Of a stretch of 64,000 bases of DNA, positions 3,352 to 53,528 are shown one piece after another. Made by a program: the position numbers and the translations under genes. How positions within the stretch are numbered: position 1 is the first letter of the stretch; each line of letters begins with the position of its first letter. The notes beneath the pieces are model-generated. The model did not search any database. It saw only the letters and a program-made list of their open reading frames with translations, and was not told the origin of the DNA. Source of the DNA: Escherichia phage UP19; sequence record OX638288; one strand, written 5' to 3'.

Positions 3352-3436
3352 TAATCTATTATCCCAGCCAGTTATTGAATGGAACAGACCTAGGACCATT
3401 ATACACTGGCTAGGACTTAAGCAATATAGGAATCCT

Positions 3437-4027
3437 ATGAACGGTTTATTTAACCAAACTAACACTACCAACTTTATCTTAGAGGTTAGTGACTCAGGAA
3501 TGACGCAGGCATTCAAATTGAACGTACAAGATGTAACACTACCGGGCATCCATATTCCGGTCTCAGACGTCCCAGGATCGACCCAAGGTATAAACCGTGC
3601 TAAACTGCCAGGTTCTACTGTAGAATTCGACCCTTTGATTGTGAACTTTCTTGTAGACCGCGAGTTGAAATCATGGCTGGACGTTTATAAATGGATGCTA
3701 TCATTAAACAACTATGTAACACATGAATCTGAAGCCTGGCATCCTAAAGGTCAGCCTGAGGCTATCACCCTCCACATTCTTGATAACAACAAACAGAAAA
3801 TCGTAATGAGCATTCATTACTACGGTGGTTGGCCATCCGACCTTTCCGAGATTCAGTACTCTTATAAAGAAGATTCCGACCCTGCGATAATCGCTACAGC
3901 AACATTCAACTTCAAATCGTTTGCTGTAGAAATAGATGGTACAATAGTTACAGGTCGTCCACAAATTGATTCGTATGCCGAACAACGTGTGGCTCGTATG
4001 TCTATGCATCCATCTATGAGAAAATAA
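3437..4027 (+). CDS. 3: tail completion / sheath stabilizer gp3
   Basis: 196 aa; synteny between 2 and 1; stop overlaps gene 1 start. Confidence 0.7.
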   Translation: MNGLFNQTNTTNFILEVSDSGMTQAFKLNVQDVTLPGIHIPVSDVPGSTQGINRAKLPGSTVEFDPLIVNFLVDRELKSWLDVYKWMLSLNNYVTHESEAWHPKGQPEAITLHILDNNKQKIVMSIHYYGGWPSDLSEIQYSYKEDSDPAIIATATFNFKSFAVEIDGTIVTGRPQIDSYAEQRVARMSMHPSMRK

Positions 4028-38692: not shown

Positions 38693-38745
38693 TGCTTTAA
38701 ACGGGTCTCCAAATACTATGATATAATAGACCTATGATTTGAGTT
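38692..38745 (+). promoter_or_regulatory. promoter upstream of gene 55 (TGCTTTA box plus TACTAT/TATAAT; middle/early type)
   Basis: tgctttaaacgggtctccaaatactatgatataatagacctatga. Confidence 0.45.
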
Positions 38746-38758
38746 ATCTGAGGTAACA

Positions 38759-39316
38759 ATGACCGAAATTAAACTGACTAAAAATAACTATGTAAATAAT
38801 AAGGAGCTTCTGAAAGCCATTACCCAGTGGAAAACAGAACTCCGAGAAAATACCGACCCTAATAAAATAGTTCGTCAGAACGACGTTATCGGCTTGGCTA
38901 TTATGCTCATTGCTGAAGGCCTTTCTAAGCGTTTCAACTTCTCCGGATATACCCAATCTTGGAAGCAAGAAATGATTGCTGATGGAATCGAAGCCTCTAT
39001 TAAAGGTCTTCATAACTTCGACGAAACAAAATACGACAACCCACATGCATATATCACTATGGCTTGTTTTAATGCCTTTGTTCAGCGTATCAAGAAAGAA
39101 CGTAAAGAAATGGCAAAGAAATACAGCTACTTCGTCCATAACGTTTATGACGCCAATGACGACGACATGGTAGGTATCGCAGATGAAACTTTTATCCAGG
39201 ATATTTACGACAAAATGACTCAGTATGAAACCTCTTTAGTTAAAGCGCCAGGGTCTGATAAGAGCGCCGAATCTAAAGTTGGTGAGCTGGATTTTTTATA
39301 TGGAACTCAAGATTAA
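38759..39316 (+). CDS. 55: late sigma factor gp55
   Basis: 185 aa ...[20 protein letters not shown]...[55 protein letters not shown]...; like T4 gp55. Confidence 0.95.
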
Positions 39317-39527
39317 CCTGGTAGGCCTTTTAGAAGAAGTAGATGGAGAGTATTCGGCAATTCCTTATGTTCTTAAAATGTACCTTAAGGATATTGCCAA
39401 GCTTCCTATTGTAATAGACCCAAAACACCCTGATTCAGTAGAAATTAAAGCTGAAAAAGGAACATTAACTTATAACTATCACGTTACCGACGAAGATTTT
39501 TATATAAAACTGAATTACAAGGATTAA
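39300..39527 (+). CDS. hypothetical protein
   Basis: ATG 39300; 75 aa. Confidence 0.45.
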
Positions 39528-39528
39528 T

Positions 39529-39840
39529 ATGCAAAGCACCGACATTTCTCAATTGACCGAAGAGCAAATTGAAGAAGCCCAGAAGCGTTTAGAAGAGAAT
39601 AATGCTAAAGAAGCCGCTTCTCAAGCTGCCAAAATTCTTAAAAAGAATGCCCGTGAAATTAAGCGTCTTAATACACATGCTCAGGGCGCTGTTCTCGAAA
39701 ACAATTTCGAAGCTTACAAATATGCTATAATTAAATTACGTGGTATTTACCGTCAACCGACTACTGACGAAATCGTTAGAGTTATGTGGGAAACTACGCG
39801 TAAACAGATTTGGGAAATTATCAATGGCGCTAGTAAATAA
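39529..39840 (+). CDS. hypothetical helical protein
   Basis: 103 aa ORF. Confidence 0.5.
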   Translation: MQSTDISQLTEEQIEEAQKRLEENNAKEAASQAAKILKKNAREIKRLNTHAQGAVLENNFEAYKYAIIKLRGIYRQPTTDEIVRVMWETTRKQIWEIINGASK

Positions 39841-40277
39841 ACCCTTTAAACGGCTTCTTATTGGAGCCGCCTTCAGACTTCGCTCATACGGTAATATTTG
39901 TATTAAGCAGACTGAAACCGAATATAAAATGATTGGGCAGTATTCCGATGAAATTTTTCGGATTGAGCCTGTAGCCAAGGTTTGGGTGGATTCACATCAA
40001 CTTAAGAAGTGGTGGCAACGATGATAACATGGACAGGTGGCTAATGAAAGACGAACATCCGGATTTTTAAGCTATGAATGACGAATACGAAAAAGTTTAA
40101 GAGGTTTTATGAATGACGAATTCGATGGATTTTGATAAGATTAAATCTGACAAAAATGAGATGATACTTAAATTTGAAGCTGCTCGTATTAAAGCGGAAA
40201 ATGAAGGTACTATTACCTATAAGCCTATCAAGTTCAGGTCTTCTCATGAACCTCTGTATGGCGTATTAATTGGTAAA

Positions 40278-40297
40278 GGAGCTTAGGCTCCTTTTTT
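40278..40297 (+). terminator. rho-independent terminator
   Basis: ggagc-ttag-gctcc followed by T6. Confidence 0.65.
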
Positions 40298-40301
40298 GCT
40301 T

Positions 40302-40328
40302 TATATTCGGATGATAAAATGAACCAAC
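40302..40328 (+). promoter_or_regulatory. candidate MotA-type middle promoter
   Basis: TGCTTTA, 11 nt, TAAAAT; matches T4 middle-promoter layout. Confidence 0.45.
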
Positions 40329-40340
40329 TGAGGAGAACAT

Positions 40341-40484
40341 ATGGAATTACTTTTAGGATATGTCGTGTTATTCATGGCATTCTACACATTCACACGAGCC
40401 TGTTGGATAGGATTCTTTTCTACTCCTGATGGGTTCATCTCAATAATTTTATTTTGCATTGCGATAACGGTGCTCGGCTTATGA
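40341..40484 (+). CDS. small membrane peptide (47 aa)
   Basis: SD gaggag before ATG; hydrophobic; stop overlaps gene 47 ATG. Confidence 0.4.
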   Translation: MELLLGYVVLFMAFYTFTRACWIGFFSTPDGFISIILFCIAITVLGL

Positions 40485-41503
40485 AAATATTAAACACAGG
40501 TGACTGGCACCTTGGAGTGAAGGCCGATGATGTGTGGGTACAAAATATCCAACGTCAAGGTATCCAAGACGCTATCAATTATTCTAAAGCAAATGGTATT
40601 ACCGTGTGGATTCAATACGGTGATATCTTTGACGTTCGTAAAGCAATTACCCATAAGTGTATGGAATTCGCTCGCGAAATCTCTGATTTGCTTAAAGCTA
40701 ATGGCATTACCATGTATACCATTGTTGGTAATCATGATATGCACTACAAAAATACCTTGACTCCTAACGCAGCTTCTGAAGTTCTGGGTAAATATGACCA
40801 TATCAAGGTTATTGAGAAACCTACTACGGTTAACTTTGATGGCACCGAAATTGATTTGATTCCATGGATGTGTGAAGAAAACACGACTGATATCATGGAC
40901 CATATCAAAAATACCACAGCAGATTTCTGTATTGGACATTGGGAATTAAATGGTTTCTATTTCTATAAAGGAATGAAATCTCATGGTTTAGAACCTGATT
41001 TCCTTAAAAAGTATAAGCAAGTTTGGTCAGGCCACTTCCACACTATTTCTGATGCAGCAAACGTCAAGTACATTGGTACTCCATGGACCCTTACTGCAGG
41101 CGATGAGAACGACCCTCGTGGTTTCTGGATTTTCGATACCGAAACTCATAAAATGGATTTCATCATTAATGAAACCTGTTGGCATCGTAAGATTCATTAT
41201 CCTAACGAGACTATCGATTACAAAGATTTTACAAATATCGCAGTTCGTGTTATAGTCGATAAAATCGATGACGGTCTTACTAAGTTCGAATCAGAGCTTG
41301 AAAAGGTTGTTCACTCTTTACGTATTGTGTCTAAGGTAGATAATAGTGTTGATATCGATGATTCTGAAGAGGAAGACGAAGTTAAATCCCTCTTGGATAT
41401 GATGTATGATTATATCGATGCCCTTCCTGATGGCCACACTGAAGCCGATGTTAAAGCCCTTAAGACTATGGCTGCACAACTTTATAATGAGGTTACACGA
41501 TGA
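40481..41503 (+). CDS. 47: recombination endonuclease subunit gp47 (Mre11-like)
   Basis: MKILNTGDWHLGVKADD...GNHDMH...; phosphoesterase motifs; like T4 gp47. Confidence 0.95.
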   Translation: MKILNTGDWHLGVKADDVWVQNIQRQGIQDAINYSKANGITVWIQYGDIFDVRKAITHKCMEFAREISDLLKANGITMYTIVGNHDMHYKNTLTPNAASEVLGKYDHIKVIEKPTTVNFDGTEIDLIPWMCEENTTDIMDHIKNTTADFCIGHWELNGFYFYKGMKSHGLEPDFLKKYKQVWSGHFHTISDAANVKYIGTPWTLTAGDENDPRGFWIFDTETHKMDFIINETCWHRKIHYPNETIDYKDFTNIAVRVIVDKIDDGLTKFESELEKVVHSLRIVSKVDNSVDIDDSEEEDEVKSLLDMMYDYIDALPDGHTEADVKALKTMAAQLYNEVTR

Positions 41504-41763
41504 CTTTAGATGAATTCAAAAAATCGGGACTTGAACTGGAACACGACTGTATAGTTATTGATGATGATGGTCAACCTAGTACAATTAAGTTCTGGTTTGA
41601 AGCCGTGAGCACTCGTGATACCGGCGAGCTTATTAAAGTTTATGTTGCTACCGATTGGGCTGTAGAATTTAGCTTTAATGTAATGGTAGATGATACTCCA
41701 GAAACATTAATTCATATGGCTGAATCATGCATCAAGGATGCTTATAACGATGAAGACTTTTAA
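41500..41763 (+). CDS. hypothetical protein
   Basis: 87 aa between 47 and 46. Confidence 0.5.
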   Translation: MTLDEFKKSGLELEHDCIVIDDDGQPSTIKFWFEAVSTRDTGELIKVYVATDWAVEFSFNVMVDDTPETLIHMAESCIKDAYNDEDF

Positions 41764-43432
41764 GTTAAAGAAAGTAACGTATAAAAATATTATGTCGGTC
41801 GGGCAGCAGCCCATTACAATCCAACTTGATAAGGTCCAAAAGACCTTAGTCACTGGTAAAAATGGTGCAGGGAAATCAACATTCCTTGAAGCTGTAACAT
41901 TTGCTCTGTTCGGTAAGCCTTTTCGTGATGTTAAGAAAGGGCAGTTGATTAACTCAAGTAACAAGAAAGACCTTTTGGTCGAACTGTGGATGGAATATGA
42001 TGGCAAAGAATACTATATCAAACGCGGGCAAAAACCCAACGTTTTTGAAATCTCTTGTGACGGTGAACGTCTTGATGAATCTGCCAGCAGTAAAGACTTC
42101 CAAGCGGAATTTGAACAGCTTATCGGAATGTCCTATGCAAGCTTCAAACAAATTGTCGTACTCGGCACAGCTGGATATACCCCTTTTATGGGCCTATCCA
42201 CTCCTGCAAGAAGAAAACTCGTCGAAGACCTCTTAGAGGTTTCTGTATTGGCGGATATGGATAAGTTAAACAAATCTTTGATTCGTGAGACCAATAGCCA
42301 AATCCAAGTAATAGACGTTAAGCAAGATTCTATTACCCAACAAATTAAAATTTATAATGACAACGAAGAACGTCAACGTAAATTATCTGGCGAAAACGCT
42401 GCCCGTCTACAATTAATGTATGATGAGCTCGTTAAAGAAGCCAGGACTGCGAAGGCGAGCATAGAATCCCTGACTGATGAATTACTCAATGTTATCGTAG
42501 ATGATGACCCTAGCGATTCCATGAGTGACCTGAGTAATAAAGGATTTGCAATCAAAAATGATATGGCAACCTTTACAAAGGTGGTTAAGTTATACGAAAC
42601 CGGTGGTCACTGCCCTACGTGTATGCAAGGGTTAGAAGAGAATGGTAATATCCTTACTAAAATTAAGGATAAAAACTTTGAGCTTCAAAAATCTTTGGAT
42701 AAGATTAATGAGCAATACCAAGAGCTCAAGCTCATTAAAGACCAAGTAACCGAACAACGCAATAAAGCGTTGGCTATTAAATCTCAGATAGCTACTCATA
42801 AGCAGCAAGCCATTACTGCTGTAGAGAAAGCCAAAAAGGTTAAGGTATTAATTGACCAAGCGGCAGCTGAGTTCGTAAGTAATGCCGAAGAGATTGCTGC
42901 GCTTCAAGCAGAGCTTGATAAAATCGTCTCTACCAAATCGTCCTTGGTAATGGAAAAATATCATCGTGGAATTCTGACAGAAATGTTGAAGGATACAGGT
43001 ATTAAAGGTTCCATTATTAAGAAATACATTCCTATCTTTAATAAGCAGATTAATTCTTATTTGAAGATGTTAGAGGCGGATTATAGTTTTTCTCTTGACG
43101 AAGAGTTCAATGAGACGATTAAGTCGCGTGGACGCGAAGACTTTAGTTATGCTTCATTTAGTGAAGGTGAAAAGTCTAGAATAGATGTGGCTCTGTTATT
43201 TACCTGGCGAGATATTGCTTCAAAGGTTTCAGGCATTAATATATCTACTCTTATTCTTGATGAGGTCTTTGATGGAAGTTTTGATGCAGAAGGTATTAAA
43301 GGTGTATCAAATATTATAAATTCTTTGGAAGATTCTAATGTCTTTATAATTTCACACAAAGACCATGACCCACAATCGTATGGACAACATTTACAAATGA
43401 AGAAGGTTGGCCGCTTTACAGTATTAGAATAA
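41750..43432 (+). CDS. 46: recombination endonuclease subunit gp46 (Rad50-like)
   Basis: ATG 41750; Walker A TGKNGAGKST; coiled-coil centre with CPTC zinc hook; signature and Walker B at C-terminus. Confidence 0.95.
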   Translation: MKTFKLKKVTYKNIMSVGQQPITIQLDKVQKTLVTGKNGAGKSTFLEAVTFALFGKPFRDVKKGQLINSSNKKDLLVELWMEYDGKEYYIKRGQKPNVFEISCDGERLDESASSKDFQAEFEQLIGMSYASFKQIVVLGTAGYTPFMGLSTPARRKLVEDLLEVSVLADMDKLNKSLIRETNSQIQVIDVKQDSITQQIKIYNDNEERQRKLSGENAARLQLMYDELVKEARTAKASIESLTDELLNVIVDDDPSDSMSDLSNKGFAIKNDMATFTKVVKLYETGGHCPTCMQGLEENGNILTKIKDKNFELQKSLDKINEQYQELKLIKDQVTEQRNKALAIKSQIATHKQQAITAVEKAKKVKVLIDQAAAEFVSNAEEIAALQAELDKIVSTKSSLVMEKYHRGILTEMLKDTGIKGSIIKKYIPIFNKQINSYLKMLEADYSFSLDEEFNETIKSRGREDFSYASFSEGEKSRIDVALLFTWRDIASKVSGINISTLILDEVFDGSFDAEGIKGVSNIINSLEDSNVFIISHKDHDPQSYGQHLQMKKVGRFTVLE

Positions 43433-53145: not shown

Positions 53146-53528
53146 TGTCGCATCGAGTAGAAAATAAGCCACATTTATGTTTTGATATCGATAACACAAT
53201 CACGATTTGGAACCATGACCGTGATTATGAGAACTTTAAACCGGACACCGAAATGGTGTCCATGATTAATAAGCTTTATGATGAAGGGTACGAGATTACA
53301 TTATTCACTGCCCGTGGCATGACTTCATGTGGCCCAGGTCGAATCTTGGTTGAAGTAGTTCCTGCATTGGTTAAGAACCTTGAAAAGATTGGATTGAAAT
53401 ATCATAATCTGCTTACGCATAAGCCGAGTTATACTTTTATCATCGATGACCGAGCAATCCGTCCTGACCACTTTAAAGAAATGGTTCGTGAAGGAACTCT
53501 TGATAGTTATAAGGCCTATCATCCATGA
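53145..53528 (+). CDS. HAD-superfamily phosphatase
   Basis: CFDIDNTIT (DxDxT motif I); 127 aa; ATG overlaps upstream stop. Confidence 0.65.
   Translation: MSHRVENKPHLCFDIDNTITIWNHDRDYENFKPDTEMVSMINKLYDEGYEITLFTARGMTSCGPGRILVEVVPALVKNLEKIGLKYHNLLTHKPSYTFIIDDRAIRPDHFKEMVREGTLDSYKAYHP

Follow-up and report, generated by a model that had tools for sequence, protein, structure and literature searches.

Escherichia phage UP19 (sequence record OX638288) was analysed over a stretch of 64,000 nucleotides (nt), hereafter the window, and the subject of this study is the interval 39841-40484 within it, where a chain of very short open reading frames (ORFs), here called mini-ORFs, leads from the end of the small gene a-gt.3 to the start of the small gene a-gt.2. 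Megablast of positions 38700-41600 gave full-length matches to Dhakavirus genomes, with 99.6% identity to vB_EcoM_IME281 and 98.9% to JS98 (99.7% to JS98 across the interval alone), and the phage is a Dhakavirus, that is, a JS98-like T4-type phage. The interval is the conserved small-gene block a-gt.3 - a-gt.2 - 47.1: the genes at the locus are annotated in JS98, EcWhh-1 and CLB_P2, the T4 block between gene 55 and gene 47 has the same gene order with recognisable homologues, and ~78% of the interval consists of these three genes, which are annotated in JS98 and conserved with T4. The initial annotation had described a gap with no long ORF, a description contradicted by this coverage; alignment to a conserved gene, which it had itself raised as an objection, is found in part, in that the interval aligns with conserved genes. 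Taken as a whole, its observation was partly confirmed and its interpretation partly supported.

The three tandem eight-codon ORFs that it reported are present, all on the plus strand and each closed by its own stop: mini-ORF 1 (the H unit, MKDEHPDF, 40044-40070), with an AGGUGG resembling a Shine-Dalgarno (SD) sequence upstream; mini-ORF 2 (the Y unit, MNDEYEKV, 40074-40100), which starts 3 nt after the mini-ORF 1 stop and whose own stop is directly followed by the SD of a-gt.2; and mini-ORF 3 (the F unit, MNDEFDGF, 40109-40135), which overlaps the a-gt.2 start in another frame and carries two overlapping start codons, ATGAATG. A fourth was overlooked: mini-ORF 0 (40021-40044, plus strand; ATGATAACATGGACAGGTGGCTAA, read from the sequence as MITWTGG) has an ATGA overlap with the a-gt.3 stop (TGA, 40022-40024) and a TAATG overlap with the mini-ORF 1 start. 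The chain from a-gt.3 to a-gt.2 is unbroken, with successive gaps of -4, -1, 3 and then 8 or 12 nt. The shared start of the three units was correctly reported as well, the 12-nt head ATGAANGACGAA being exact at 40044, 40074 and 40109; these are its only three occurrences in the window, where 0.08 would be expected, and the tail pattern [DE][DE][HYFW]xx[FVYW]-stop is likewise found three times in the window, at this locus only (0.72 expected). The 12-nt head and a TTT-stop tail are all that the units have in common; Tandem Repeats Finder reports no periodic array at the mini-ORFs, and a repeat search returned one 35-nt pair of 74% identity. From the inner ATG of the Y unit a further ORF, MTNTKKFKRFYE, runs in the +1 frame (40078-40116, plus strand) to a TGA that overlaps the a-gt.2 ATG (ATGA), with no sign of constraint on that frame.

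The RNA of this region has no unusual structure. The predicted fold of 40000-40170 is no more stable than that of shuffled sequence (z = +0.95), a search of the spacer for repeats and palindromes returned a 10-nt palindrome only, and a terminator scan gave no terminator-like site between the mini-ORFs and a-gt.2. An attenuator is therefore unlikely, and a structured RNA in the spacer was rejected on the same fold and palindrome results. The suggestion in the initial annotation of leader-peptide-like regulatory elements fares unevenly: it gains indirect support from the coding-like substitution pattern described below, with no RNA structure of the attenuator type to go with it.

The gene to which the chain leads, a-gt.2 (40113-40286, plus strand), encodes a 57-amino-acid (aa) protein of family DUF5486 that matches PF17588 over residues 2-54 (72.9 bits against a cutoff of 27, E = 1.9e-20) and phrog_2140 (E = 5.8e-32), shares 32 identical residues with T4 a-gt.2, likewise a DUF5486 protein, and is annotated in JS98. 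It lies 3' of a-gt.3 and 5' of 47.1 and 47 in JS98, T4 and at least 30 related loci. The '41-codon ORF' of the initial annotation is the 3' part of this 57-codon gene: its ATG at 40161 was rejected as the a-gt.2 start, having no SD and with homologues that reach further upstream, whilst the ATG at 40113 has a well-spaced one. The latter ATG, the inner one of the F unit, is the annotated a-gt.2 start. The SD that serves the paired starts ATGAATG, AAGAGGT (40099-40105, plus strand), pairs with the 3' end of the 16S rRNA in a predicted duplex of -6.5 kcal/mol (the median over all ATGs is -2.2) and stands 6 nt from the inner and 2 nt from the outer ATG. In relatives the 4 nt between GAGG and ATG are free to vary, with ATGAATG unchanged, and the second codon of the F unit, AAT throughout, keeps the inner ATG intact, whilst codon 2 varies in the H and Y units. 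The a-gt.2 frame is used directly for initiation in the relatives TH15, L033, L034 and L036; in TH15 the protein begins MMNSTDFDK, an unambiguous start in the a-gt.2 frame.

Variation and origin of the units

The comparison covered 42 loci, drawn from GenBank phages, IMG/VR, metagenomes and Logan assemblies; a metagenome scan yielded two loci. Among the 42, one to three units stand upstream of a-gt.2, in at least eight arrangements. The window shares the arrangement 0-H-Y-F with others in a group of 11 loci, and 10 loci have H-Y-F, six 0-Y-F, five 0-H-F, three 0-Y-H-F and two H-F; a fused form, H only and Y-F are each represented by a single locus. In T4 and L037 the gene is continuous, without separate units. 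Absence of the repeats from close isolates, a second objection that the initial annotation had foreseen, is thus found in part, since the number and the identity of the mini-ORFs differ among relatives: the Y unit is present in most of them rather than all, and mini-ORF 0 is not universal, the Gaprivervirus-type and L015/L016-type loci having other short ORFs in its place.

The units also occur within ORFs of different lengths. The H-Y-F group includes the Gaprivervirus types, in which H is the tail of a 13-aa ORF, MNIGCFEDEHPDF, that starts on the a-gt.3 stop, and loci of the 0-Y-H-F group carry H at the end of a 39-aa ORF. The frame of the inner ATG runs into the tail of the next unit in the 39-aa ORF of pEC-M719, the 18-aa ORFs of TH15 and L036 and the 17-aa ORF of L040. 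In TH15 and L036 the F unit has no outer ATG, and the ORF that contains its tail opens at the inner ATG of the Y unit.

The N-terminus of T4 a-gt.2, MVATVKDEHPTSEIDYNKIRSS (MVATVKDEHP...), is continuous with the gene, which overlaps a-gt.3 by 16 nt, and the H unit (MKDEHPDF) matches it; in the window that N-terminus is split off and repeated as mini-ORFs. Because of this match we regard H, Y and F as out-of-frame tandem duplicates of the 5' end of a-gt.2. The continuous state is also seen in L037, with the N-terminus MQKKADPENPDYDK and no separate units. A database search yielded 18 clusters of a-gt.2 homologues, and in one of these, P0012 (contig L032), which reads MKDEHPDFDKIKSDKNEM..., H is fused in frame to the a-gt.2 body, giving one protein, MKDEHPDFDKIKS... 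(MKDEHPDF-DKIKS...). L032 agrees with ESh27, a phage of the 0-H-Y-F arrangement, at 98% identity upstream and without any difference in the a-gt.2 body; what sets L032 apart is a 67-nt deletion located precisely between the two copies of GGATTTT. The fused form was accordingly rejected as the ancestral one, being a recent 67-nt deletion derivative of an ESh27-like phage.

These data suggest a history in which roughly the first eight codons of a-gt.2 would have been duplicated in tandem and out of frame to give the mini-ORFs. The upstream copies, closed by stops, would have been kept as separate tiny cistrons, H and Y, with MITWTGG ahead of them, and the last copy, F, would overlap the present a-gt.2 start, which may itself be an ATG that arose in the +1 frame of the repeat head (ATGA-ATG-ACG). 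Unit number and order would then shift by recombination at short repeats, the GACGAA head and the GGATTTT tail. We consider this structural and evolutionary part of the explanation highly probable. In T4-type genomes small genes are shuffled at short conserved junction sequences, and in the promoter-stem-loop cassettes of the hyperplastic regions of these phages short border repeats likewise mediate the gain, loss and reordering of small modules; those cassettes consist of promoters and stem-loops, whereas the repeats in the window are coding (a 12-nt head and a 7-nt tail) and the modules measure 30-35 nt.

Some loci depart from this scheme or resemble it elsewhere. Klebsiella phage Marfa (L025, 1319-1411) has a 30-aa ORF, MVREPDSSEYFIHDVDDLGVVENKVGFGEG, between its a-gt.3 and a-gt.2 homologues, and the L015-type phages have a seven-codon ORF, MVGFGEG, with the same tail in the same place, which makes a second case of a small ORF cut down to its start and last codons. 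In L038, a Logan contig (412-657), a-gt.3 runs on to 81 aa and ends ...RRLMNDEHPDF; a-gt.3 is joined to the H tail there by what looks like a 1-nt change near the AAAAAATGG run, which may be either a real variant or an assembly error. The divergent 173-kb contig L033 (1439-1530) has TTC both in the H tail (GAT TTC TAA) and in a-gt.2 (GAT TTC GAC), and all other loci have TTT at both of these Phe positions; the TTC pair may stem from concerted evolution, from an independent duplication or from a take-off/landing constraint of the kind discussed below.

Coding-like substitution in the mini-ORFs

Codon changes in the cores of the units were tallied across clades as distinct variants, by fuzzy matching with any substitution permitted, which recovered the same alleles as a regex tally that allowed third-position changes only. 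The H core had five synonymous and no non-synonymous variants, the Y core four and one (DKYEKV in ESh27), and the F core, in the mini-ORF frame, four and none, whilst the controls had 28 and 19 (a-gt.2 body) and 43 and 12 (a-gt.3). Thirteen of the 14 core variants are synonymous, with a neutral probability of 1e-7 to 2e-10, and the cores differ from the a-gt.2 body at P = 0.024 (Fisher). Within Dhakavirus and Gaprivervirus, 13 sites vary once the start codon and codon 2 are set aside; 12 of them are third positions in the mini-ORF frames, and the linkers are free to vary. In the F unit, where two frames overlap, the four polymorphisms are all silent in mini-ORF 3 and all alter the a-gt.2 protein, at residues 2-5 (T/M, N/S, S/L and M/T). 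Mini-ORF 0 has 11 distinct alleles in relatives, with changes nearly all in the third base of a codon; the peptide varies at residue 6 alone (G/A), and GTG serves as the start at two loci.

The tails are also stable over longer distances. DEHPDF with its stop is invariant in ORFs of 8, 11, 13, 17 and 39 aa across clades, and both this tail and MNDEYEKV with its stop are identical in clades in which a-gt.2 is merely 62-65% identical; L036, for example, keeps MNDEYEKV with an a-gt.2 of 65% identity. In each arrangement sampled, every tail lies inside a start-bearing ORF, using either its own start codon or the inner ATG of the previous unit. Since the cores are tighter than the flanking genes, with 13 synonymous variants to one non-synonymous, it appears that the mini-ORFs are translated and that selection acts on them, at the amino-acid level to judge from the substitution pattern; translation is what this evolutionary evidence leads us to infer.

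Literature searches turned up nothing on a-gt.2 or DUF5486 and no published account of the mini-ORF chain, so that a chain of conserved, copy-number-variable mini-ORFs formed from the a-gt.2 start, within a block that is already annotated, appears to be undescribed. The chief value of the analysis is corrective, in that the locus holds conserved small genes and not a gap or a decayed glucosyltransferase. What is new is that, among naturally occurring related phages, the opening codons of one gene have been duplicated, severed and reshuffled, and that the severed pieces of seven to eight codons still evolve like coding sequence and more tightly than the adjoining genes. If translated, they would be among the shortest conserved cistrons in T4-type phages, and the natural variants with three, two or one unit, together with the fused form, all of them present in existing collections, would make a ready test system for control by tiny upstream ORFs.

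Possible functions

A cis-acting role of the mini-ORFs on a-gt.2 is the function that we favour, tentatively. The stop-start chain from a-gt.3 to a-gt.2 may stand in for the direct gene overlap of T4, and the short upstream cistrons would then either relay ribosomes to a-gt.2 or compete for them and thereby tune a-gt.2 translation. Leader ORFs and coupled mini-cistrons are known in bacterial and phage operons, among them the cat, cmlA and erm leaders and cases of termination-reinitiation coupling. Like those of the window, they place ORFs of seven to eight codons 5' of a gene start or overlapping it, with stops and starts that overlap or lie a few nt apart and with a conserved peptide; the window differs in showing no sign of an inducer, a stalling motif or an alternative RNA structure and in having several paralogous units of variable number. 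Joined to the duplication history, this cis role completes an account that, taken as a whole, we judge somewhat probable.

Several points weigh against that account. If the units did nothing but relay ribosomes, conservation of an open frame would be accounted for but that of the amino-acid sequence would not; a-gt.2 also has a strong SD of its own, so coupling may be unneeded. Both H and Y are individually dispensable, as the existence of 0-Y-F, 0-H-F and fused phages attests, and the mini-ORF 0 ATG has been lost in some lineages. The RNA offers no unusual structure for coupling to open (z = +0.95). Some of the constraint could be maintained by recombination with longer-ORF contexts, such as the 39-aa ORF and the fused a-gt.2, and the codon tallies count distinct variants and not phylogenetically independent events. 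The direction of events is likewise not proven, and insertion of foreign junctions may have taken the place of duplication.

It is also possible, although we find it doubtful, that the mini-ORFs are functional in their own right, as paralogous peptides of 8-17 residues that derive from the severed a-gt.2 N-terminus, have conserved C-terminal hexapeptides (DEHPDF, DEYEKV, DEFDGF) and would either regulate a-gt.2 translation as nascent peptides or work as free micropeptides; the most exotic form of this idea would have them rejoined to a-gt.2 by a +1 slip at UUU-UGA or a gene-60-like hop. The narrower proposal that they are trans-acting micropeptides, with the function residing in the hexapeptides, for example as acidic, aromatic-ended protein-binding tails, seems unlikely to us. 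In E. coli SSB (DDDIPF) and T7 gp2.5, acidic tails with a terminal Phe serve as interaction motifs, and the proposal would account for conservation at the amino-acid level (13 synonymous variants to one), for constraint centred on the last six residues in ORFs that vary from 8 to 39 aa, for retention across clades with a-gt.2 at 62-65% identity and for the restriction of the tails to this one locus in the window. Eight residues are nevertheless very short for a stable function, phages without H or without Y are viable and common, and the fused form has no free peptides; moreover, the Y tail ends in Val rather than an aromatic residue, H clearly derives from a protein N-terminus and not from a C-terminal motif, and the peptides have no known target or homologue.

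At a similar level of improbability we place the view that the units have no function and are scars that duplication and deletion have made at a recombination-prone junction, left open by chance or through recency. Copy number and order do vary among close relatives, units are lost without obvious harm, L032 displays a natural deletion between repeats, and some start codons are now TTG, GTG or CTG; the lack of a regular array by Tandem Repeats Finder and of RNA structure also speaks for this view. This view is opposed by the substitution data, in which the 13:1 ratio departs strongly from neutrality (P ≤ 1e-7) and exceeds that of the neighbouring genes and 12 of 13 variable sites lie at third codon positions next to free linkers, as well as by tails that are identical in clades whose a-gt.2 proteins are 35-38% divergent and by the finding that, across all 42 loci, every tail lies in a start-bearing ORF.

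Recoding that joins a mini-ORF to a-gt.2 we regard as very unlikely. Two variants can be formulated: a prfB-like +1 slip at GGA-UUU-UGA-U in mini-ORF 3 (40127-40136), which would give MNDEFDGF-DKIKS..., and a gene-60-like bypass from GAU-UUU-UAA (40063-40071) to GAU-UUU (40128-40133), which would give the T4-like MKDEHPDF-DKIKS.... In the first, UUU-U-GA lets tRNA-Phe re-pair perfectly in the +1 frame, where the next codon is the GAU of a-gt.2 (then AAG), much as at the prfB (RF2) site CUU-UGA-C, where the slip likewise re-pairs and continues with an Asp codon; the four overlap polymorphisms, all silent in mini-ORF 3 and none of them silent in a-gt.2, fit such a slip. In the second, the take-off and landing codons match (GAU-UUU at both) and co-vary in L033 (TTC at both, TTT at both elsewhere), the stop directly follows the take-off codon, and the predicted product corresponds to an uninterrupted homologue, features shared with the T4 gene 60 bypass and its 50-nt gap. 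Either route would recreate the architecture of the natural fused P0012, whose length and pattern the predicted product matches. However, a-gt.2 has its own conserved ATG (40113) with a strong, well-spaced SD, TH15, L033, L034 and L036 start it directly in its own frame, and the 0-Y-F and Y-F loci have no H unit to hop from, so that recoding is not required; as an obligatory route to a-gt.2, +1 frameshifting or bypass was downgraded on the strength of these same phages. In contrast to prfB, the downstream gene self-initiates, no SD-like stimulator stands at the prfB spacing (only GGA adjoins the site), and some relatives are without the site or the upstream ATG, the outer ATG being absent in TH15 and L036 and the UUUUGA site in L033. 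In contrast to gene 60, there is neither a stable take-off hairpin nor a known nascent-peptide signal, the gap of 20-63 nt contains rival UUU/UUC landing sites, and the H unit is often absent. A duplication origin predicts matching codons in any case.

The alpha-gt site and flanking genes

In T4 the gene order is 55, a-gt.5, a-gt.4, a-gt.3, a-gt.2, mobB, alpha-gt, 47.1, 47, and the window is without both mobB and alpha-gt. As these lie between a-gt.2 and 47.1 in T4, the equivalent site in the window is 40287-40340, and not the junction of a-gt.3 and a-gt.2 at which the mini-ORFs stand and at which the initial annotation had placed it. These 54 nt hold the a-gt.2 terminator hairpin, a TGCTTTA-11 nt-TAAAAT element and the 47.1 SD, and they align along their length with T4 intergenic sequence, with no leftover coding DNA. 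With T4 alpha-gt and mobB as tblastn queries, 39841-40484 gave no match even with E allowed to reach 10, and the best match anywhere in the window, at 53295, was not significant (E = 0.027), so that the suggested check for pseudogene remnants in the interval came out negative. Absence of alpha-gt from JS98-type phages is already known: alpha-gt has been described as present in 'T-even type phages only', with JS98 lacking glucosyltransferases (PMC2993671). This published absence maps to the clean 54-nt junction, elsewhere in the interval from the mini-ORFs, and the loss of a glucosyltransferase proposed in the initial annotation therefore holds as regards the missing gene and fails as an explanation of the mini-ORF site. 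In L034, a metagenomic relative, alpha-gt follows directly after a-gt.2 (PF11440, E = 5e-225) and the locus also carries a split ORF ending in DEHPDF and an F unit; the mini-ORFs are therefore independent of the presence of alpha-gt. That the mini-ORFs and their surroundings are the decayed remnant of a lost alpha-gt can be practically discarded, the absence of the gene from the window and from JS98-type phages in general being outweighed by the downstream position of the T4 site, the negative tblastn result, the homology of mini-ORF 1 to the a-gt.2 N-terminus, the coexistence of alpha-gt and split ORFs in L034 and the end-to-end alignment of the a-gt.2/47.1 spacer with T4 intergenic sequence. 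An alpha-gt or mobB pseudogene was rejected for the lack of tblastn signal, the wrong position and the same coexistence.

The terminator and the candidate middle promoter that the initial annotation placed after the 41-codon ORF were both recovered. A terminator scan finds an intrinsic-terminator-like hairpin (GGAGCTTAGGCTCC) with a T-run at the a-gt.2 end (40275-40297, plus strand), the scan itself giving 40275-40294, which aligns with the hairpin GGAGCTTCGGCTCC after T4 a-gt.2, and the middle-promoter-like element that follows (40297-40320, plus strand), composed of TGCTTTA (40297-40303), 11 nt and TAAAAT (40315-40320), aligns with the T4 a-gt.2/mobB intergenic sequence TTGCTTTATAAATTTTTTGGTAAAAT. 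TGCTTTA resembles the MotA-box consensus of T4 middle promoters, and the terminator and promoter-like sequences after a-gt.2 in T4 and the window are homologous.

Of the flanking genes, the a-gt.3 homologue (66 aa, 39824-40024, plus strand), overlooked in the initial annotation, is annotated in JS98, EcWhh-1 and CLB_P2, matches phrog_1648 (E = 5e-29), shares 31 identical residues with T4 a-gt.3 and has a start that overlaps the end of a-gt.4. The 47-aa hydrophobic ORF at 40341-40484 (plus strand) was described correctly and is the 47.1 homologue, a predicted membrane peptide annotated in JS98, with a match to phrog_6693 (E = 1.1e-30) and 37 of 46 residues identical to T4 gp47.1 (~80%); its SD is GAGGAG (40330-40335; duplex -9.2 kcal/mol), and its stop forms an ATGA overlap (40481-40484) with the gene 47 ATG at 40481. 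In L042 (915-1532), a metagenomic Dhakavirus-like contig, the place of 47.1 and alpha-gt between a-gt.2 and gene 47 is occupied by a 205-aa ORF without a Pfam match.

Automated annotation misses elements such as the mini-ORFs, and the comparison also exposed mislabelled neighbours. In OM386655 (ESCO10), PP693301 (P8), NC_070780 and NC_048798 several labels read 'anti-restriction nuclease' or 'head maturation protease'; they sit on homologues of a-gt.2, a-gt.3 and a-gt.4 and even on gene 47, and nothing was found that supports them. The matching PHROGs families are of unknown function, save one weak match to a 'head maturation protease' family.

Further upstream, a-gt.4 (39529-39840; DUF2654) and a-gt.5 (39300-39527; DUF5491) are identified by the JS98 annotation and Pfam. 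The mechanical ORF call for a-gt.5 begins at a TTG at 39279 (82 aa) and overlaps gene 55, whilst the JS98 annotation begins at the ATG at 39300 (75 aa), and the DUF5491 match starts at residue 3 of this shorter form. Downstream, gene 46.1 (70 aa), which JS98 and CLB_P2 have between 46.2 and 46 (3410-3622 in the JS98 locus, L001, whose coordinates become those of the window on adding 38340), is absent from the window at 41740-41770, and gene 46 (start near 41750, Walker A motif GKNGAGKST) directly follows 46.2, as it does in EcWhh-1.

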